NCBI RefSeq assembly: GCF_009931435.1
Contig: NZ_CP043414.1
DNA: 64,000 nt
Strand: one strand, 5' to 3'
Origin: Escherichia coli
Lineage (GTDB): Bacteria > Pseudomonadota > Gammaproteobacteria > Enterobacterales > Enterobacteriaceae
This document shows positions 8,078-41,117 of this stretch, piece by piece (the stretch's first letter is position 1; each line of letters opens with the position of its first letter). The position numbers were made by a program, and so were the translations under genes. The notes beneath the pieces were generated by a model that worked only from the letters and a program-made list of their open reading frames with translations, had not been told where the DNA came from and ran no database searches.

Positions 8078-8929
8078 GTGTTAATTATCGAAACCCTGCC
8101 GTTGCTGCGTCAGCAAATTCGCCGCCTGCGAATGGAAGGCAAACGCGTGGCGCTGGTGCCTACTATGGGTAACCTGCACGATGGTCATATGAAGCTGGTC
8201 GACGAAGCCAAAGCCCGCGCCGATGTGGTCGTCGTCAGTATTTTCGTTAACCCGATGCAGTTTGACCGCCCGGAAGATCTGGCTCGTTATCCACGCACTT
8301 TGCAGGAAGACTGCGAGAAACTAAACAAACGTAAAGTGGATCTGGTTTTCGCTCCCTCGGTAAAAGAGATCTATCCGAACGGTACAGAAACCCACACCTA
8401 TGTCGATGTTCCAGGCCTTTCCACCATGCTGGAAGGTGCCAGCCGTCCAGGACATTTTCGCGGCGTATCGACCATCGTCAGCAAACTGTTCAACCTGGTC
8501 CAGCCGGACATCGCCTGCTTCGGTGAAAAGGATTTTCAGCAACTGGCACTGATCCGCAAAATGGTTGCCGATATGGGCTTCGATATTGAGATTGTCGGAG
8601 TGCCGATTATGCGCGCGAAAGACGGTCTGGCGCTCAGTTCCCGTAACGGCTATCTGACGGCGGAACAACGTAAAATTGCGCCGGGTCTGTACAAGGTCTT
8701 AAGTTCAATTGCCGACAAATTGCAGGCTGGCGAACGGGATCTCGATGAAATTATTGCTATTGCCGGGCAAGAATTGAATGAAAAAGGTTTCCGTTCCGAT
8801 GATATTCAGATTCGCGATGCCGACACCTTGCTGGAAATCGCTGAAAACAGCAAACGAGCGGTGATTCTGGTAGCCGCCTGGCTTGGCGATGCTCGCCTGA
8901 TCGACAACAAAATCGTCGAACTGGCGTAA
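8078..8929 (+). CDS. panC: Pantoate--beta-alanine ligase (pantothenate synthetase)
   Basis: 283 aa, [37 protein letters not shown]; GTG start at 8078. Confidence 0.97.
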
Positions 8930-8947
8930 TACTTATACTCTAAATAA

Positions 8948-9062
8948 TTCAAGTTGCAGGAAGGCGGCAAGCGAGTGAATCCCCAGGAGCTTACATAAGT
9001 AAGTGACTGGGGTGAGCGAACGCAGACGCAGCACATGCAACTTGAAGTATGACGAGTATAAC
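8948..9062. repeat. ERIC (enterobacterial repetitive intergenic consensus) element
   Basis: Contains ERIC core GTGAATCCCCAGGAGCTTACATAAGTAAGTGACTGGGGTGAGCG flanked by inverted repeat AAGTTGCA...TGCAACTT; lies between convergent panC and rpnC. Confidence 0.85.
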
Positions 9063-9149
9063 TGGCGCTACGGCTGATGGCGCCAATTATTAATTTGCCC
9101 CACATCATGGCGATGACGTCTGTAAGCGATTATTCATATCGCAGGCAAT

Positions 9150-10070
9150 TTAGTTAAACAGCTTATCAAGCTCAGCAAGAGGTAAATTTGCCATCTCTGC
9201 AACGTCTTCCCGAGACATTCCTTTACTCAGAAGACGCAGGGCGAATTCTTGCCTTTCCTCCTGTCTTCCCAGCTGAATCCCCTTCTCAATCCCCTTCTCA
9301 ATTCCCTTCTCAATTCCCTTCTCTTCAAACCACTGCGCCAACGTCATCATAGACTCCCCTCCCGTTTCCCTGTCTCTCACCACACCATAAAACAAATCCG
9401 CTTGTTCAGTATGACCGCGTTGCAGCATATAGTTTTGCATGGCAACTAACTGACTTCCGCTAGTGTACCCTTCGTCAATCAGCGTGACCAGTTGCTCCAG
9501 CAATAACATTAAGTCGCGCTGGCGAATATGTTTTTGCAGCAGTTCGAGAATCGCAATCCGCCGATGTTGCATGATTTCGTCATCCGGTGTGATAGTGATA
9601 TCCACCAGCGGGAAAGGACTGTTATAGACGCGTCGCGCCAGCTCCGGCGAGTAAAACATATCAAACCAGCACATTGAGAGCGGATAAGGTGTGGCCTCGC
9701 CCTGATAAAACAGAATCGGCACCACCAGCGGCAGCTTATCGTGATCTGCCTCCAGATGCCGGTGCATGGCAGCAATAGAATAACGCATCATGCGAAACGC
9801 CATTTTTTTATCCGGCTTGCTTTGGTGTTCAATCACAACATGTAGATAGCCCGTATTACCCTGCATTTGCACGGAATAGAGCACGTCAGTGCTGTGCCCT
9901 TTCAGGCTTTCTTCAATAAAACTCCCCGACTCAAGATGCAGCGTGTCGAGGTCACACAGTTCGCGTAGCTCCGCTGGCAAATGGATATCCAGAAAGTCGC
10001 GAGCCGTTTCCGCGTGCATTAAAAATTGTTTAAACACCGCATCATGCGGTGTGGTACTCGGTGCATCCAT
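9150..10070 (-). CDS. rpnC: Recombination-promoting nuclease, Rpn/YhgA-like (PD-(D/E)XK, transposase_31 family)
   Basis: 306-aa ORF with Rpn-family N-terminus and C-terminal EKGI tetrapeptide repeats; position between panC and panD as for yadD/rpnC. Exact start uncertain. Confidence 0.85.
   Translation of the reverse strand: MDAPSTTPHDAVFKQFLMHAETARDFLDIHLPAELRELCDLDTLHLESGSFIEESLKGHSTDVLYSVQMQGNTGYLHVVIEHQSKPDKKMAFRMMRYSIAAMHRHLEADHDKLPLVVPILFYQGEATPYPLSMCWFDMFYSPELARRVYNSPFPLVDITITPDDEIMQHRRIAILELLQKHIRQRDLMLLLEQLVTLIDEGYTSGSQLVAMQNYMLQRGHTEQADLFYGVVRDRETGGESMMTLAQWFEEKGIEKGIEKGIEKGIQLGRQEERQEFALRLLSKGMSREDVAEMANLPLAELDKLFN
9278..9323 (-). repeat. In-frame 12-bp tandem repeat (about 3.8 copies) inside rpnC, encoding (EKGI)n
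   Basis: TCCCCTTCTCAA x2, TTCCCTTCTCAA, then partial copy; translated on minus strand as GIEKGIEKGIEKGI. Confidence 0.9.
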
Positions 10071-31138: not shown

Positions 31139-33802
31139 TTACGCCAGACGCGGGTTAACTTTTTCTGCATCGATGTTGAATTTGGCGATTGCGTCAGCAA
31201 CCACTTTCTTATCGATTTCGCCACGTTTAGCCAGTTCGCCCAGCGCCGCAACCACGACATAAGAAGCATCAACTTCGAAGTGGTGACGCAGGTTCTCACG
31301 GCTGTCGGAACGACCGAAGCCATCAGTACCCAGTACGCGGTAGTCGTCAGCCGGTACGTAAGTACGGACCTGCTCAGCGAACAGTTTCATATAGTCGGTA
31401 GATGCCACTGCCGGAGCGTCGTTCATCACCTGAGCGATATACGGAACGCGTGGAGTTTCCAGCGGGTGCAGCATATTCCAGCGTTCACAATCCTGACCAT
31501 CACGCGCCAGTTCGGTGAAGGAGGTCACGCTATATACGTCAGAACCTACGCCATAATCTTTCGCCAGGATCTCTGCCGCTTCACGGACGTGACGCAGGAT
31601 AGAACCGGAGCCCAGCAGCTGAACTTTACCTTTGCTACCTTCAATGGTTTCGAGTTTGTAGATACCTTTACGGATACCTTCCTCAGCACCTTCCGGCATT
31701 GCCGGCATGTGGTAGTTTTCGTTCAGCGTAGTGATGTAGTAGTAAACGTTCTCTTGTTTTTCACCGTACATACGCTCCAGACCGTCATGCATGATGACAG
31801 CAACTTCGTAAGCGTAAGCCGGGTCGTAAGAAATACAGTTCGGGATAGTCAGCGACTGAATGTGGCTGTGACCATCTTCGTGCTGCAGACCTTCGCCGTT
31901 CAGGGTGGTACGACCGGAAGTACCGCCGATCAGGAAGCCACGTGCCTGCTGGTCGCCAGCAGCCCAGCACAAATCGCCGATACGCTGGAAGCCGAACATC
32001 GAGTAATAGATGTAGAACGGAATCATCGGCAGATTGTTGGTGCTGTAAGAAGTCGCCGCTGCCAGCCAGGAACAACCTGCGCCCAGCTCGTTGATCCCTT
32101 CTTGCAGAATCTGACCTTTCTCGTCTTCTTTATAGTAAGCAACCTGCTCGCGGTCCTGCGGGGTGTACTGCTGACCGTTCGGGCTGTAAATACCAATCTG
32201 ACGGAACAGACCTTCCATACCGAAAGTACGCGCTTCGTCGGCGATGATCGGCACCAGACGATCTTTGATCGACTTGTTCTTCAGCATCACGTTCAGGGCA
32301 CGAACGAAAGCGATAGTGGTAGAGATCTCTTTGCTCTGCTCTTCCAGCAGCGCGCCGAAGTCTTGCAAGCTCGGCAGCTCCAGCTTCTCGGTGAAGTTCG
32401 GCTGGCGGCTTGGCAGATAACCGTGCAATTTCTGACGCTGAGCGTGCAGATAGGTATGCTCTTCAGAACCTTCCGGGAAGGTGATGTACGGCAGTTTTTC
32501 GATATCAGCATCAGACACCGGCACATTGAAACGGTCGCGGATATGACGCACGCCGTCCATGTTCATTTTCTTAACCTGGTGCGCGATGTTTTTACCTTCA
32601 GCTGCGTCGCCCATGCCGTAACCTTTAATGGTATGAGCAAGGATTACTGTCGCTTTGCCTTTGGTTTCCTGCGCTTTCTTGAATGCAGCGTAGATTTTCT
32701 TCGGATCGTGACCACCACGGTTCAGCGCCCAGATCTGCTCGTCAGTCCAGTCTGCAACCAGAGCTGCGGTTTCCGGATATTTACCGAAGAAGTGTTCACG
32801 AACATACGCACCATCTTTCGATTTGAAGGTCTGGTAATCGCCGTCAACGGTTTCGTTCATCAGCTGGATCAGTTTACCGCTGGTATCTTTACGCAGCAGT
32901 TCGTCCCAACGGCTACCCCACATCACTTTGATCACGTTCCAGCCAGCACCTTCGAAGATGCCTTCCAGTTCGTTGATGATCTTGCCGTTACCGGTGACCG
33001 GGCCGTCAAGACGCTGCAGGTTACAGTTGATAACGAAGACCAGGTTATCCAGTTTTTCACGGGTAGCGATGGTGATCGCACCTTTGGATTCCGGTTCGTC
33101 CATCTCGCCGTCGCCGAGGAAGGCGTAAACGGTCTGTTTAGAAGTATCTTTCAGGCCACGGTGTTCCAGATATTTCAGGAATTTAGCCTGGTAAATAGCA
33201 CCAATCGGACCCAGACCCATAGATACGGTCGGGAACTGCCAGAATTCCGGCATCAGTTTCGGGTGCGGATAGGAAGAGAGGCCATTGCCGTGAACTTCCT
33301 GACGGAAGTTATCCAGCTGCTCTTGAGTCAGACGACCTTCCAGGAAAGCACGTGCGTAAATGCCCGGGGAGATGTGGCCCTGGAAGTAAACCAGGTCGCC
33401 GCCATCCTGCTCGTTGCGTGCACGGAAGAAGTGGTTAAAGCACACATCATAAATGGTTGCGGACGACTGGAAGGACGCCATGTGGCCGCCCAGTTCGAGG
33501 TCTTTTTTCGACGCACGCAGAACCGTCATGATGGCGTTCCAGCGGATAGCTGAACGAATACGGCGTTCCAGTTCCAGATTACCCGGATACTCCGGTTGTT
33601 CTTCAACGGGGATGGTGTTGATGTAGTTGCTGATACCGGTGCCTGCGGCTACGTTGACACCGCCTTTGCGGGCTTCAGCAAGCAGTTGGTCGATCAGATA
33701 CTGAGCACGCTCAACACCTTCTTCACGGATGACCGATTCGATCGCCTGGAGCCAGTCGCGAGTTTCGATCGGATCCACGTCATTTGGGAAACGTTCTGAC
33801 AT
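31139..33802 (-). CDS. aceE: Pyruvate dehydrogenase E1 component
   Basis: 887 aa, [29 protein letters not shown]. Confidence 0.97.
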
Positions 33803-33962
33803 GGGTTATTCCTTATCTATCTAATAACGTTGAGTTTTCTGGAACCTGTCCCATTGAACTCTCGCCGGAAAGCTCAATAAGACAGGTTCTACGTTTAGTT
33901 GCCGCGCTTTTATATGCGCTTGATTTACAACATCTTCTGGATAATTTTTACCAGAAAAATCA

Positions 33963-34727
33963 CTAATTCTTTCGTTGTTCCAGACGACGCAGAGAACGCT
34001 CACGGCGGCTCTCTTCACGGCTTCTGTCGAGCAAAATTTCTTCGATAAAGGCCAGATGGCGATGCGATGCTTCGCGCGCTTCTTCCGGCTTACCGGCCAT
34101 AATCGCTTCGAATATGCGAGTGCGGTGACTACTCACCAGCGGCAGCATCTCGCGACGCGAATAGAGCAATTCGAAGTTCTGACGGACATTCTGAGCCAAC
34201 ATCGGCTCCATACACCTTAGCAGATGAAGCAGAACTACATTGTGGGCTGCTTCGGTGACGGCAATCTGATACTGGAGGACGGCGTTTGATTCCGCGTCCA
34301 GATCGCCAGACTGCTGCGCCAGCTCTATGGCGTGGTGGAGTTCACGGATGCGTTCCTTGTCTTCATCGGTACTACGCAGCGCGGCGTAATAGGCGGCGAT
34401 ACCTTCCAGGGCGTGTCGTGTTTCGAGCAAGTCATACTGTGATTCAGGATGGTCGGAGAGCAGCTCCACCAGCGGATCGCTGAAACTTTGCCAGAGGCTG
34501 CTCTGAACAAAAGTGCCGCCACCCTGGCGACGAAGCAACAAGCCCTTTGCTTCGAGACGTTGAATCGCCTCACGCAAGGAGGGACGGGAGACGTCGAACT
34601 GTTTCGCCAGTTCGCGTTCCGGTGGGAGTTTTTCGCCCGGGCGGAGTGTGCCTTCGAGGATCAAAAACTCCAGTTGCTGCTCAATCACATCGGAGAGTTT
34701 TGGTTGGCGGATTTTGCTGTAGGCCAT
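33963..34727 (-). CDS. pdhR: Pyruvate dehydrogenase complex repressor (GntR family)
   Basis: 254 aa from [26 protein letters not shown]; GntR-type HTH; track ORF begins at an upstream TTG. Confidence 0.95.
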
Positions 34728-34758
34728 GAGTTCCTGTCTTAAGCCACTTGCCGAAGTC

Positions 34759-34775
34759 AATTGGTCTTACCAATT
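34759..34775 (-). promoter_or_regulatory. PdhR operator in pdhR promoter/leader
   Basis: Perfect palindrome AATTGGTCTTACCAATT matching PdhR box ATTGGT-N3-ACCAAT, about 30 bp upstream of pdhR ATG. Confidence 0.8.
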
Positions 34776-35179
34776 TCATGTCTGTGACGCTAAAGTAACA
34801 AAGTATTCACCTCATGTCCATACAGGTTTTGATTGAAATCATGAAACTGTGCACATTTTAACAAGTTGACATATATAACGTTTCAAAGTTGTAACTATGC
34901 ACAAATGTAGACTTTACGTAGGAAAGGGATTTTTTAACGATTATTAAACTATAAAAATCCGAATTGAACCGATTCACTTACCAATTTATCGATTTTTAAT
35001 TCAAAAATAATGAATTTATATTCATTTTGTATGTTGAGGGGATTTGAGGCTGACCTTTACAAACGGTTCCTTTTTAAGCAACTCATCTTCAACCATGCAT
35101 AAAGCGGGTGCATTCGCTGCCGCATACCATTATTCTTTATCTGACGGAAGTCCTTTTGTAACAATTCAAACGTCTTTGA

Positions 35180-35197
35180 TGTAAACAAATTAATACA
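35180..35197 (+). promoter_or_regulatory. Candidate TyrR box upstream of aroP
   Basis: TGTAAA-CAAATT-AATACA resembles TyrR consensus TGTAAA-N6-TTTACA (2 mismatches), about 70 bp upstream of aroP ATG. Confidence 0.35.
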
Positions 35198-35267
35198 AAA
35201 AACGGAATTGCAAACTTACACACGCATCACTGCGTAGATCAAAAAAACAATCACCGCACGAGGTTTC

Positions 35268-36641
35268 ATGATGGAAGGTCAACAGCACGGCGAGCAGCTA
35301 AAGCGCGGCCTTAAAAACCGCCATATTCAGCTTATCGCGCTGGGTGGCGCGATAGGGACCGGGCTATTTCTGGGTAGCGCCTCCGTAATACAGTCCGCAG
35401 GGCCAGGGATTATCCTGGGTTACGCCATTGCTGGTTTTATCGCCTTTCTGATCATGCGTCAGCTAGGTGAAATGGTGGTCGAAGAACCTGTCGCAGGCTC
35501 CTTTAGCCACTTTGCTTATAAATACTGGGGTAGCTTTGCCGGTTTCGCTTCTGGCTGGAACTACTGGGTACTGTACGTTTTAGTTGCCATGGCAGAGCTG
35601 ACTGCCGTGGGTAAATACATTCAGTTCTGGTATCCGGAAATCCCCACCTGGGTTTCTGCCGCCGTGTTCTTTGTGGTGATCAACGCCATCAACCTGACAA
35701 ACGTAAAAGTGTTTGGCGAGATGGAGTTCTGGTTTGCCATTATCAAAGTTATCGCAGTGGTGGCGATGATCATCTTCGGCGGCTGGCTACTGTTCAGTGG
35801 CAACGGCGGCCCGCAGGCGACCGTTAGCAACCTGTGGGATCAAGGTGGTTTCCTGCCGCACGGCTTTACCGGACTGGTGATGATGATGGCGATTATCATG
35901 TTCTCTTTCGGCGGTCTGGAACTGGTGGGGATCACCGCAGCAGAAGCTGATAATCCGGAGCAAAGTATCCCGAAAGCAACTAACCAGGTTATCTACCGCA
36001 TCCTGATTTTCTATATTGGTTCGTTAGCCGTTCTGCTCTCGCTGATGCCATGGACCCGCGTTACTGCTGATACCAGTCCGTTTGTACTGATCTTCCACGA
36101 ATTGGGCGATACCTTTGTGGCTAATGCGCTGAACATCGTGGTACTGACTGCTGCGCTCTCCGTGTACAACAGCTGCGTATATTGCAACAGCCGTATGCTG
36201 TTTGGTCTGGCACAACAGGGCAACGCGCCAAAAGCGCTGGCGTCTGTCGACAAACGCGGTGTACCGGTTAACACTATTCTGGTGTCTGCGCTGGTTACGG
36301 CATTGTGCGTGCTGATTAACTACCTTGCACCGGAATCCGCATTCGGACTGTTAATGGCGCTGGTGGTATCTGCACTGGTCATCAACTGGGCGATGATTAG
36401 CCTGGCGCATATGAAATTCCGTCGCGCCAAGCAGGAACAAGGCGTGGTAACTCGCTTCCCTGCTCTGCTTTATCCGCTGGGTAACTGGATCTGCCTGCTG
36501 TTTATGGCGGCGGTACTGGTGATTATGCTGATGACCCCAGGAATGGCGATTTCGGTATACCTGATCCCGGTATGGCTGATCGTGTTAGGTATCGGCTATC
36601 TGTTTAAAGAGAAAACCGCCAAAGCCGTAAAAGCGCATTAA
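35268..36641 (+). CDS. aroP: Aromatic amino acid:H+ symporter (APC family)
   Basis: 457 aa, MMEGQQHGEQLKRGLKNRHIQLIALGGAIGTGLF; multi-TM permease. Confidence 0.95.
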   Translation: MMEGQQHGEQLKRGLKNRHIQLIALGGAIGTGLFLGSASVIQSAGPGIILGYAIAGFIAFLIMRQLGEMVVEEPVAGSFSHFAYKYWGSFAGFASGWNYWVLYVLVAMAELTAVGKYIQFWYPEIPTWVSAAVFFVVINAINLTNVKVFGEMEFWFAIIKVIAVVAMIIFGGWLLFSGNGGPQATVSNLWDQGGFLPHGFTGLVMMMAIIMFSFGGLELVGITAAEADNPEQSIPKATNQVIYRILIFYIGSLAVLLSLMPWTRVTADTSPFVLIFHELGDTFVANALNIVVLTAALSVYNSCVYCNSRMLFGLAQQGNAPKALASVDKRGVPVNTILVSALVTALCVLINYLAPESAFGLLMALVVSALVINWAMISLAHMKFRRAKQEQGVVTRFPALLYPLGNWICLLFMAAVLVIMLMTPGMAISVYLIPVWLIVLGIGYLFKEKTAKAVKAH

Positions 36642-36650
36642 TCTCTCTAC

Positions 36651-36675
36651 GCCCTCACCCGTGCAGGGTGAGGGC
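36651..36675. terminator. Hairpin between convergent aroP and ampE
   Basis: Perfect 10-bp stem GCCCTCACCC / GGGTGAGGGC; weak U-tract. Confidence 0.5.
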
Positions 36676-36683
36676 AATAATCT

Positions 36684-37538
36684 TTACACCAACGCCCCGT
36701 AAATCGTCAGTAGCGCAATTACCACCACGACCACGAACGAGGTTTTCTTCGCCATGGAAACCGCTGCCTTCGGCGTCTCCACCTTATCGACATGCGGTTC
36801 ACGCGCCAGAGAGAACTGTGCCAGACGTGTTAATACCTGATATTGCGAAGTATGGAAATCACCCAGCGAAGCAAACCAGGCCGGTAACGCTTTTTCCCCA
36901 TGACCGATCAAGGCATATACCACACCCGCAAGACGAACCGGCACCCAATCCAGTACATGAAGCACGGCATCAATGCCGGACTGTAAACGATGATGCGGCG
37001 TCTGGTAACGCGCCAGCCAGTATTGCCATGCACGCAAAAACGCATACCCCATCAGCGTAACGGGTCCCCAGGTTCCCCCCACAATCAGCCAGAACAACGG
37101 AGCAAGATAAAAACGAAAGTTAATCCACAGCAATGCATTTTGCAGCTCACGCAAATACTCACGTTCATCGCAGCCTGCTGGGACGCCGTGAATCATGGTG
37201 AGTTCGCCAGCCATCGTGGCACGGGCATGGCTATCATTACGTGAAGCAGCTGTCAGATAAGCATGATAATGAAGACGAACTTTACCTGCGCCAATACACA
37301 GCAAACCAATCAGCAGCCACACCAGCAGCGTGGGAACGTTGAACAATACTCCCTGCAATGCGCGTAACAGTAAAAAAGTCACGCCCATCGCAATAATGGT
37401 CATGCCTAATGTGCGCCCGAGAGAAAAATGTTTCACCCGCCGGAAGAACGCCTCAAGACGATGATCAAGCTGCCAGTGCTCGCCCAGCTTAAACAGGCGC
37501 TCGAAAATTAACACCAATAGGGTTGTAAACAGCGTCAT
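36684..37538 (-). CDS. ampE: Inner-membrane protein AmpE
   Basis: 284 aa from [31 protein letters not shown]; ATGA overlap with ampD stop. Confidence 0.9.
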
Positions 37539-38086
37539 GTTGTCTCCTTGCTGACCAGGGCGCGAAACCGTGCCCAATCAAAGGCGGGGCCGGGATCGGT
37601 TTTCCGATCCGGCGCAATATCACAATGGCCCGTCATGTTATTAGCGATATCTGGATAGCGATCAATCAGTGCCCGCGTAACCGCCGCAAGCTGTTGATAC
37701 TGCGCATCGGTATACGCCAGCGTATCGGTGCCTTCCAGCTCAATCCCAATAGAAAAATCATTGCAGCGTTCGCGCCCCTGATACTGAGAGACTCCGGCAT
37801 GCCAGGCACGTTTATCGAAAGGAACATACTGGACTATTTCACCATCGCGGCGAATCAAACAGTGAGCGGAGACGCGCAAATGGGCGATCTCAGCAAAGAA
37901 AGGATGTGCCTGCGGATCAATAGTTCCAGTGAATAATGCGTCGATCCACGGACCGCCAAACTCGCCTGGCGGCAGGCTAATATTGTGCACCACCAGCAGG
38001 GTGGGTGTTTCGTCATCCGGGCGGCAATCGTAATGTGGTGAGGGAACGCGGCGCGCGCCAACCAGCCACCCCTGTTCTAACAACAT
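37535..38086 (-). CDS. ampD: 1,6-anhydro-N-acetylmuramyl-L-alanine amidase
   Basis: 183 aa, [25 protein letters not shown]; amidase_2 family. Confidence 0.95.
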
Positions 38087-38113
38087 GCAGGATCTCCTTA
38101 TATGTGGTGCTAA

Positions 38114-39067
<954 letters not shown>

Positions 39068-39269
39068 TTGCTGACAGATTTATCCGCTCCATCGCGGGCG
39101 GATAATCTCCCCTTTCCCAACTTTCTTCGTAACGCCTCGCAAATTTCTTGTCTTTCGCTGCAACGTAATAAAAAACTCCGGAAGCTGCTTTCCCGTTTCG
39201 TTTTTTGCCCCTCGCTTGTGCTGATGGCGTTTGCCAAAGTAGCGCCAACCAAATCAAGGAGCGAAACAA

Positions 39270-39710
39270 ATGGACAAGCAACGCGGTTTTACACTTATCG
39301 AACTGATGGTGGTTATTGGCATCATTGCCATTTTAAGCGCCATTGGTATTCCCGCTTATCAAAACTACCTGCGCAAAGCCGCACTCACCGACATGCTACA
39401 AACCTTTGTGCCTTACCGTACCGCCGTAGAGTTGTGCGCGCTGGAACATGGTGGATTAGATACCTGCGACGGTGGCAGCAATGGCATTCCCTCGCCTACC
39501 ACCACCCGCTATGTTTCAGCCATGAGTGTGGCAAAGGGCGTGGTGTCGCTGACCGGGCAAGAAAGTCTCAATGGGCTAAGCGTCGTTATGACACCGGGTT
39601 GGGATAACGCAAACGGCGTCACCGGCTGGACGCGCAACTGCAATATTCAAAGTGACAGCGCATTGCAGCAAGCCTGCGAAGATGTCTTTCGCTTTGATGA
39701 CGCCAACTAA
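39270..39710 (+). CDS. ppdD: Type IV prepilin (prepilin peptidase-dependent pilin)
   Basis: 146 aa; MDKQRG-FTLIELMVVIGIIAILSAIGIP prepilin leader and hydrophobic N-terminal helix. Confidence 0.9.
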   Translation: MDKQRGFTLIELMVVIGIIAILSAIGIPAYQNYLRKAALTDMLQTFVPYRTAVELCALEHGGLDTCDGGSNGIPSPTTTRYVSAMSVAKGVVSLTGQESLNGLSVVMTPGWDNANGVTGWTRNCNIQSDSALQQACEDVFRFDDAN

Positions 39711-39719
39711 GGAGCGGCA

Positions 39720-41117
39720 ATGAATATTCCACAGCTCACCGCCCTGTGTCTGCGTTATCAGGGAGTCTTGCTGGATGCCAGCGAAGAGGTGGTTCATGTT
39801 GCGGTGGTTGATGCCCCTTCGCATGAGCTACTGGACGCATTGCATTTCGCTACCACCAAACGTATTGAGATCACCTGCTGGACGCGCCAACAAATGGAAG
39901 GTCACGCCAGTCGCACCCAACAGACATTGCCCGTAGCTATTCATGAGAAGCATCAGCCCAAAGCAGAGTTGCTGACTCGAACGTTACAATCTGCGCTGGA
40001 ACAACGCGCGTCTGATATTCATATCGAACCAGCGGACAATGCCTACCGCATCCGCTTGCGTATCGACGGTGTATTGCATCCTTTACCGGATGTTTTACCG
40101 GATGTTTTACCGGATGCCGGAGTCGCATTAACCGCCAGATTAAAAGTGCTGGGCAACCTGGATATTGCGGAACATCGCCTGCCGCAGGACGGGCAATTCA
40201 CTGTCGAACTGGCAGGAAACGCCGTCTCATTTCGTATTGCGACCTTACCATGCCAGGGTGGTGAAAAGGTGGTATTAAGGTTGTTACAGCAGGTGAGCCA
40301 GGCACTGGATATCAACACGCTGGGGATGCAGCCGTTACAACTGGCGGACTTTGCTCATGCCTTGCAACAACCACAGGGACTGGTGCTGGTAACTGGCCCT
40401 ACAGGCAGCGGCAAAACGGTCACGCTTTATAGTGCCCTGCAAACGCTGAATACCGCTGACATTAATATTTGTAGCGTCGAAGATCCGGTTGAGATCCCCA
40501 TAGCCGGACTAAACCAGACGCAAATCCATCCGCGTGCCGGTCTTACCTTTCAGGGCGTTTTGCGTGCGTTATTGCGCCAGGACCCTGACGTCATCATGAT
40601 CGGAGAGATCCGCGATGGCGAAACAGCAGAGATCGCTATTAAAGCGGCGCAAACCGGTCACCTGGTGTTGTCTACCCTACACACCAATTCCACCACTGAA
40701 ACGCTGGTACGTTTACAGCAAATGGGAGTCGCCCGCTGGATGCTCTCATCGGCGCTTACGCTGGTAATAGCCCAGCGTCTGGTACGCAAACTTTGCCCGC
40801 ATTGTCGCCAGCAGCAAGGGGAGCCCATCCATATTCCAGACAATGTATGGCCGTCGCCGCTGCCCCGCTGGCAAGCACCCGGTTGTGTACATTGCTACCA
40901 CGGTTTTTATGGTCGCACGGCCTTATTTGAAGTTCTGCCCATAACACCGTTCATACGTCAGCTTATTTCCGCTAATACCGACGTTGAATCGCTGGAAACG
41001 CACGCCCGACAGGCGGGTATGCGAACGCTTTTTGAAAACGGCTGCCTGGCCGTGGAGCAAGGCTTAACCACCTTTGAAGAGTTAATCCGCGTATTGGGAA
41101 TGCCGTATGGCGAGTAA
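39720..41117 (+). CDS. hofB: Type IV pilus assembly ATPase (GspE/PilB family)
   Basis: 465 aa; Walker A GPTGSGKT; C-terminal CxxC pairs; follows ppdD. Confidence 0.9.
   Translation: MNIPQLTALCLRYQGVLLDASEEVVHVAVVDAPSHELLDALHFATTKRIEITCWTRQQMEGHASRTQQTLPVAIHEKHQPKAELLTRTLQSALEQRASDIHIEPADNAYRIRLRIDGVLHPLPDVLPDVLPDAGVALTARLKVLGNLDIAEHRLPQDGQFTVELAGNAVSFRIATLPCQGGEKVVLRLLQQVSQALDINTLGMQPLQLADFAHALQQPQGLVLVTGPTGSGKTVTLYSALQTLNTADINICSVEDPVEIPIAGLNQTQIHPRAGLTFQGVLRALLRQDPDVIMIGEIRDGETAEIAIKAAQTGHLVLSTLHTNSTTETLVRLQQMGVARWMLSSALTLVIAQRLVRKLCPHCRQQQGEPIHIPDNVWPSPLPRWQAPGCVHCYHGFYGRTALFEVLPITPFIRQLISANTDVESLETHARQAGMRTLFENGCLAVEQGLTTFEELIRVLGMPYGE
40083..40118 (+). repeat. In-frame 12-bp tandem repeat (3 copies) in hofB encoding LPDV-LPDV-LPDA
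   Basis: TTACCGGATGTT x2 then TTACCGGATGCC. Confidence 0.9.

Follow-up and report, generated by a model that had tools for sequence, protein, structure and literature searches.

The window analysed here, a 64,000-nt stretch of Escherichia coli DNA, carries at positions 8934-9060 (+ strand) a canonical short-form ERIC, a 127-bp non-autonomous and MITE-like repeat of enterobacteria, between the convergent 3′ ends of panC and rpnC. Taken as a whole, the reading that we favour, and hold to be very likely correct, is that of a canonical ERIC which arrived in one old insertion and persists as a co-transcribed, near-neutral passenger in the 3′ UTR of panBC. The evidence comes from alignment with copies at other loci, from comparison of filled and empty sites, and from predicted RNA folds.

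Identity and boundaries of the repeat

The flanking genes are panC (pantoate--beta-alanine ligase; 8078-8929, + strand, with a TAA stop codon at 8927-8929) and rpnC (9150-10070, − strand), which encodes an Rpn-family recombination-promoting nuclease of 306 aa. Both are open reading frames in the window, and both are annotated at the same positions in a RefSeq E. coli record whose identity to the window across 8500-9600 is 99.7%. The initial annotation had placed a full-length ERIC copy between these two 3′ ends, which we confirm, and had it fill the entire junction from 8930 to 9149, which has to be narrowed: the element occupies 127 of the 220 spacer bases (8934-9060), and the sequence from 9061 to 9149 was there before it. 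A 100-aa ORF at 8806-9108 (− strand), which runs antisense through panC and the ERIC and has no RefSeq counterpart, was dismissed as spurious.

The 44-nt core proposed earlier (GTGAATCCCCAGGAGCTTACATAAGTAAGTGACTGGGGTGAGCG) is matched exactly at 8975-9018 (+ strand), with 0 occurrences expected by chance over 100 dinucleotide-preserving shuffles. This segment holds both of the standard ERIC-PCR primer sites, with exact matches to the complement of ERIC1R at 8975-8996 and to ERIC2 at 8997-9018. The outer inverted repeat that had been pointed out, AAGTTGCA/TGCAACTT, is also real, and sits within a longer terminal pair of 26 nt (8933-8958 and 9036-9061) that is 85% complementary. Inside the terminal TA dinucleotides, the left terminal inverted repeat is TACTCTAAATAATTCAAGTTGCA (8936-8958, + strand) and the right one is TGCAACTTGAAGTATGACGAGTA (9036-9058, + strand), and the two together form the outer stem in the RNA folds of both strands.

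To judge the element over its full length, we derived a consensus from copies at four unrelated E. coli loci, yeiS-preT, yafP-prfH, ybhI-ybhJ and cusC-cusF, aligned together with their flanks. Similarity among these copies begins at (T)ATACTC and ends at GAGTATA, and the flanks are unrelated. The initial annotation had regarded poor alignment to ERIC outside the core as grounds for abandoning the call; what we see is good alignment from end to end, at 125/127 positions (98.4%). The window copy departs from the consensus at just two bases, having A in place of G at 8951 and G in place of A at 8967. In the outer stem, A8951 gives an A-U pair where the consensus has G-U. When the junction was compared by megablast with 5,426 complete E. 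coli genomes, the ERICs found at other loci aligned with window positions 8934-9060 (query 75-201). Elsewhere in E. coli chromosomes, such copies show 94-98% identity across 126-136 bp, and a genome has a median of 6-7 megablast-detectable ERIC places (range 2-12). The boundaries given here, with 127 bp including the terminal TA at each end, rest on the consensus identity, on these megablast ends and on the empty sites described below. No second copy of the ERIC core is present in the 64-kb window, and a blastn search of the window with word size 7 for other ERIC copies or fragments gave only chance-level matches of 11-20 nt.

The insertion site and its distribution

Comparison of filled with empty sites reveals a clean, TA-duplicating insertion 4 nt past the panC stop codon. 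The filled site has the form ACT-TA-[123 bp]-TA-ACTGG, and its empty counterpart is ACT-TA-ACTGG. In the window the junction reads GTAATACT-TA-[123 bp]-TA-ACTGGCGC, with the left and right copies of the duplicated target at 8934-8935 and 9059-9060, whereas the DH1 junction reads GTAATACTTAACTGGCGC, and SCU-122 and ST131 have GCTTAA at that place. The empty site as a whole is ACTTAACTGG in DH1 (a K-12 derivative), E. whittamii, E69 and others, and GCTTAACTGG in SCU-122 and ST131. Checking for presence or absence at this junction in other genomes, as had been suggested, thus yielded a clean filled/empty polymorphism with TA duplication. Insertion at a TA target with duplication of that TA agrees with what reviews say of ERIC, namely that it is a MITE of ~127 bp with terminal inverted repeats, TA termini and a target duplication, co-transcribed with neighbouring genes (PMC2229807, PMC3184786, PMC10969869). 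We propose that the ERIC inserted once, long ago, at the TA found 4 nt downstream of the panC stop, duplicating it, and that it landed between the panC stop and an older conserved hairpin, the probable terminator of panBC.

The 89 nt that follow the element (9061-9149) are also present in strains without ERIC, and we therefore regard them as ancestral spacer. They include a GC-rich hairpin, TGGCGC...GCGCCA with a ATTATTAATTT tail (9063-9096, + strand; stem 9063-9085), which is a probable panBC terminator and not a part of the ERIC, from which it folds separately. Its 24-nt core, CTGGCGCTACGGCTGATGGCGCCA, is invariant in all 13 of the Escherichia sequences compared, filled or empty, and the hairpin with its ATTATTAATT tail is the sole terminator-like site that a terminator scan reports in 8600-9500. 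The + strand fold has a z of −1.85 and the tail is broken by A's; it would appear to be only a moderate terminator, and it is this old hairpin that most likely terminates panBC. The remaining ancestral spacer, 9097-9149, varies between strains and includes an 11-bp indel relative to K-12. The segment concerned, CATGGCGATGA at 9104-9114, occurs in the window, O157, E69 and E. whittamii, is altered in E. albertii, and is missing from DH1, SCU-122 and ST131, regardless of ERIC state.

The panC-rpnC site is filled in 427 of the 5,426 complete E. coli genomes (7.9%), and ~92% have no ERIC here. The short form is found in 18 E. coli genomes, with an identity to the window of 99% or more, and, with 2 substitutions, in the E. 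albertii type strain. A long form with a 71-nt insert after GCGAGTG is carried by Escherichia sp. E1V33 and by ~409 E. coli genomes, a figure that is the total of 427 minus the 18 short copies and not a genome-by-genome classification; O157:H7, O55:H7 and animal isolates are among these. The site is empty in E. whittamii, in Escherichia sp. MOD1-EC7003 and in two further species representatives labelled E. coli. To find species other than E. coli, we scanned representative genomes for the conserved hairpin.

The element has the identical site and the identical orientation in all four filled lineages, and A8951 and G8967 are present in each of the window, E. albertii, O157 and E1V33 copies, where the other four loci have G and A. 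Because site, orientation and two diagnostic bases are common to all sampled filled copies, the comparison points to orthologous copies that would descend from a single old insertion. The patchy distribution would then need either repeated precise loss or transfer of alleles by homologous recombination.

The 71-nt module of the O157 type is absent from the whole of the window. Long-form ERICs with an internal insertion of ~70 bp are reportedly known from the work of Sharp in 1997 and of Wilson and Sharp in 2006. In the junction sequences retrieved here, the module lies at 986-1056 in O157:H7 (L002) and at 1842-1912 in E1V33 (L011); it forms three consecutive hairpins (−32 kcal/mol) and shows no obvious target duplication. 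The left arm of the copy in O157:H7 strain SS TX 754-1 has an extra 7-bp duplication, CAAGTTG. That the same orthologous site holds a short form in some genomes and a long one in others implies that the module was gained or lost in situ, or that conversion from another ERIC took place.

In the aceEF region (30000-40000), an identity of at least 99% to the window is reached by only 6 of the 5,426 genomes; judged by such similarity, the window stems from an uncommon E. coli lineage. Its panC is ~93% identical to those of K-12, ST131 and SCU-122, which are no nearer than E. whittamii (93.1%), and the panBC-rpnC segment appears either mosaic or unusually divergent.

The rpnC side of the junction is also variable. 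At 9276-9323 a 12-bp unit (AATCCCCTTCTC on the + strand) is repeated 4.0 times within rpnC and encodes a GIEK/KGIE run, EKGIEKGIEKGIEKGIQ. This is the four-residue repeat that, according to Zhong et al. 2023, differs in number from strain to strain and sets the pairing specificity of RpnC-S and RpnC-L (PMC10400941), and RpnC length varies accordingly, from 294 to 306 aa, among the strains that we fetched. In ST131 (L005, 1012-1209) and in two other sequences, L008 (516-711) and L006 (3714-3879), part of the 3′ end of rpnC occurs a second time between the hairpin and the full-length gene. These partial copies share 78-86% identity with the window rpnC at its 3′ end, the one in ST131 being annotated as a hypothetical protein, and they match the description of the downstream antitoxin copy rpnC-Ss (PMC10400941). 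The last of the three sequences, L006 (CALXDF010000219.1), is a 4.3-kb contig from a MAG labelled 'uncultured Oscillospiraceae bacterium'. It has E. coli panC, the hairpin and rpnC, is identical to the ST131 allele across 146 nt around the junction, and almost certainly comes from E. coli, having been mis-binned into a Firmicutes MAG. Short and long ERIC forms, the 11-bp indel and the rpnC-Ss cassette together make the panC-rpnC spacer a hotspot of structural variation.

Transcription and possible effects on the flanking genes

For MG1655, rpnC and panC are listed as a convergent excludon, a label given where the two transcripts overlap in half or more of the analysed RNA-seq samples (PMC12288877). 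MG1655 has an empty site at this junction. From the geometry and from ERIC-free K-12, we infer that the ERIC is transcribed within the panBC 3′ UTR, as it lies upstream of the older hairpin that most likely ends panBC. Given the overlap of the rpnC and panC transcripts in K-12, the element is probably transcribed in antisense too, and it would lengthen that overlap by 125 nt. On either strand its transcript would fold into a long imperfect hairpin, in keeping with the long RNA hairpins that the initial annotation had ascribed to ERIC elements: for the ERIC alone we obtain −54.2 kcal/mol (z −8.6) on the + strand and −47.0 kcal/mol (z −6.4) on the − strand, and no shuffle is as stable on either one. 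Any effect would be at most modest, either on how stable the panBC mRNA is and how it is processed, or by way of a longer sense/antisense overlap. As ~92% of E. coli genomes have no ERIC at this junction, it is needed by neither gene, and the copy here is most likely a near-neutral passenger.

Several other readings of this element can be weighed against that of a passenger. A long, stable hairpin between convergent genes could serve as a bidirectional terminator of panC and rpnC, and the earlier proposal had indeed included termination of both transcripts. We find this very unlikely, as no U-run follows the stem on either strand (the + strand continues ACTGGCGCTACGG and the − strand AGTATTACGCCAG), the terminator scan reports the separate hairpin instead, and ERIC-free strains, in which that hairpin is invariant, terminate without an ERIC. 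A role as intrinsic terminator was rejected on the missing U-tract and on the existence of this separate conserved hairpin at 9063-9096. One could also see a small-RNA gene here. A search of the region against Rfam, in which no ERIC family is present, aligned V_AS5 (RF02818, Vibrio antisense RNA AS5) end to end with 8933-9056 at an E of 2.8e-9, and gave a weak match to isrH (RF01391) through the ERIC termini. Both matches fall far under their gathering thresholds, however, at 49.8 bits against 96 and 14.5 against 45; the aligned columns are ERIC termini and core; and in 8600-9500 there is no promoter-like site on the + strand, while the two on the − strand are downstream of the element. We lend scarcely any credence to a small-RNA gene akin to either family, and rejected it because these sub-threshold matches are confined to ERIC-like parts. 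With such columns aligned, the simplest reading is that the two families were built over ERIC-like repeats, the V_AS5 match probably being best explained by a family built over a Vibrio ERIC-like repeat. A match to mir-15 over the conserved hairpin (E 0.66) is noise. Finally, the Rpn proteins are members of transposase_31 (PMC5350276), a protein family, and the ERIC might be tied functionally to the RpnC nuclease, for instance by being mobilised by it or by serving as its substrate. What speaks for this is adjacency, which the initial annotation had already taken to be probably incidental, and that judgement stands up well. The empty-site strains inspected (DH1, SCU-122 and ST131) retain rpnC, and the ERIC is here in just 427 of the 5,426 genomes; none of the ERICs at yeiS-preT, yafP-prfH, ybhI-ybhJ and cusC-cusF has an rpn gene nearby; the conserved hairpin and 89 nt lie between ERIC and rpnC; and rpn genes are reported to be without inverted repeats or target duplications (PMC10400941). 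The adjacency looks incidental, we see no functional tie between gene and repeat, and a link to RpnC, rejected on distribution, strikes us as barely conceivable.

A stronger rival, though still an unlikely one in our estimation, holds that the ERIC acts on the stability or processing of RNA, that it tunes panBC or the rpnC-panC antisense overlap in this way, and that it is kept for that reason. Its hairpin would shield the panBC mRNA from 3′ exonucleases, or would expose a destabilising site for RNase E or RNase III. The predicted hairpin is very stable on both strands and begins 4 nt past a stop codon, in a probable 3′ UTR, where the rpnC and panC transcripts of K-12 overlap. The ERIC sequence is also very well conserved, with at most a few substitutions among the sampled Escherichia lineages, and the orthologous copies of E. 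albertii and E. coli are nearly unchanged relative to one another, at 2 substitutions. Such conservation could mean constraint and not neutrality, but recombination or gene conversion among copies gives the same picture. Co-transcribed ERICs of Yersinia are reported to alter the stability of the upstream mRNA according to their orientation, one of the terminal repeats providing a site for RNase E (PMC2229807, PMC3184786, PMC10969869), and in reviews these orientation-dependent effects are described for Y. enterocolitica. Neither gene depends on such an element, as ~92% of E. coli genomes lack it at this site, and so do E. whittamii and others. The ybhI and cusC ERICs, which lie 1-6 nt past a stop codon, are moreover oriented oppositely relative to the upstream gene. 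In the panC mRNA, the 3′ arm of the ERIC reads CUUGAAGUAUGACGAGUAUA and not the AU-rich GAAUUAUUUAGAGUAUA, so that the destabilising orientation may not be the one present downstream of panC. As the copy runs opposite to those at ybhI and cusC, the model of RNase E cleavage may not hold here.

A bolder form of this idea is that selection keeps the ERIC across species as a tuner of the convergent rpnC-panC overlap, and that it persists in E. albertii, a further Escherichia species and several E. coli lineages as a polymorphism of presence and absence and of short and long forms. If true, this would link how an antiphage toxin/antitoxin gene is expressed to the 3′ end of the pantothenate operon, but we hold it to be highly improbable. 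We retain the reading of a near-neutral passenger.

Relation to known repeat families

The ERIC repeat is an already known and well-described category. Its MITE-like nature, its TA duplication and its polymorphism among strains have all been published, and the panC-rpnC copy adds nothing to the category as such. A review from 2024, citing Wilson & Sharp 2006, mentions 14 additional ERIC elements in intergenic regions of non-K-12 strains (PMC10969869), and the panC-rpnC site of O157:H7 is very probably one of these. The practical value of the present analysis lies in the exact boundaries that it provides for annotation, in the separation of the ERIC from the true terminator-like hairpin, which is a distinct and older feature, and in the use of the filled/empty and short/long states at panC-rpnC as a lineage marker (for O157:H7/O55:H7 and for a rare E. 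coli lineage). The Rfam matches suggest, in addition, that the V_AS5 and isrH families contain or overlap ERIC-like repeats, and sub-threshold matches to these families in enterobacteria will often be ERIC copies.

The window copy is a member of the ERIC / IRU / RU-1 family, which is said to have been described by Sharples and Lloyd in 1990 and by Hulton and colleagues in 1991. Every defining feature tested is present, from the 127-bp length, exact core, terminal inverted repeats, TA termini and TA duplication to the intergenic position beside a stop codon and the multi-copy occurrence, and we infer its transcription. Nothing substantial sets it apart, A8951 and G8967 being private to the orthologous Escherichia copies. 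Also closely related is the long-form ERIC at panC-rpnC in O157:H7, O55:H7, other E. coli and E1V33, which is the orthologous copy and differs in form, the window having the short one. The ERICs that reportedly modulate mRNA decay in Yersinia enterocolitica (De Gregorio et al. 2005) belong to the same family; like them, the copy studied here is beside a stop codon, is probably co-transcribed and can fold as a hairpin. It differs in that its orientation on the panC side is opposite to that of both other stop-proximal E. coli copies inspected. The Correia/NEMIS elements of Neisseria and the REP/BIME elements of E. coli are likewise small, co-transcribed intergenic palindromes that can affect mRNA processing or stability; their sequences, sizes and host ranges are unrelated, and the resemblance is one of analogy.
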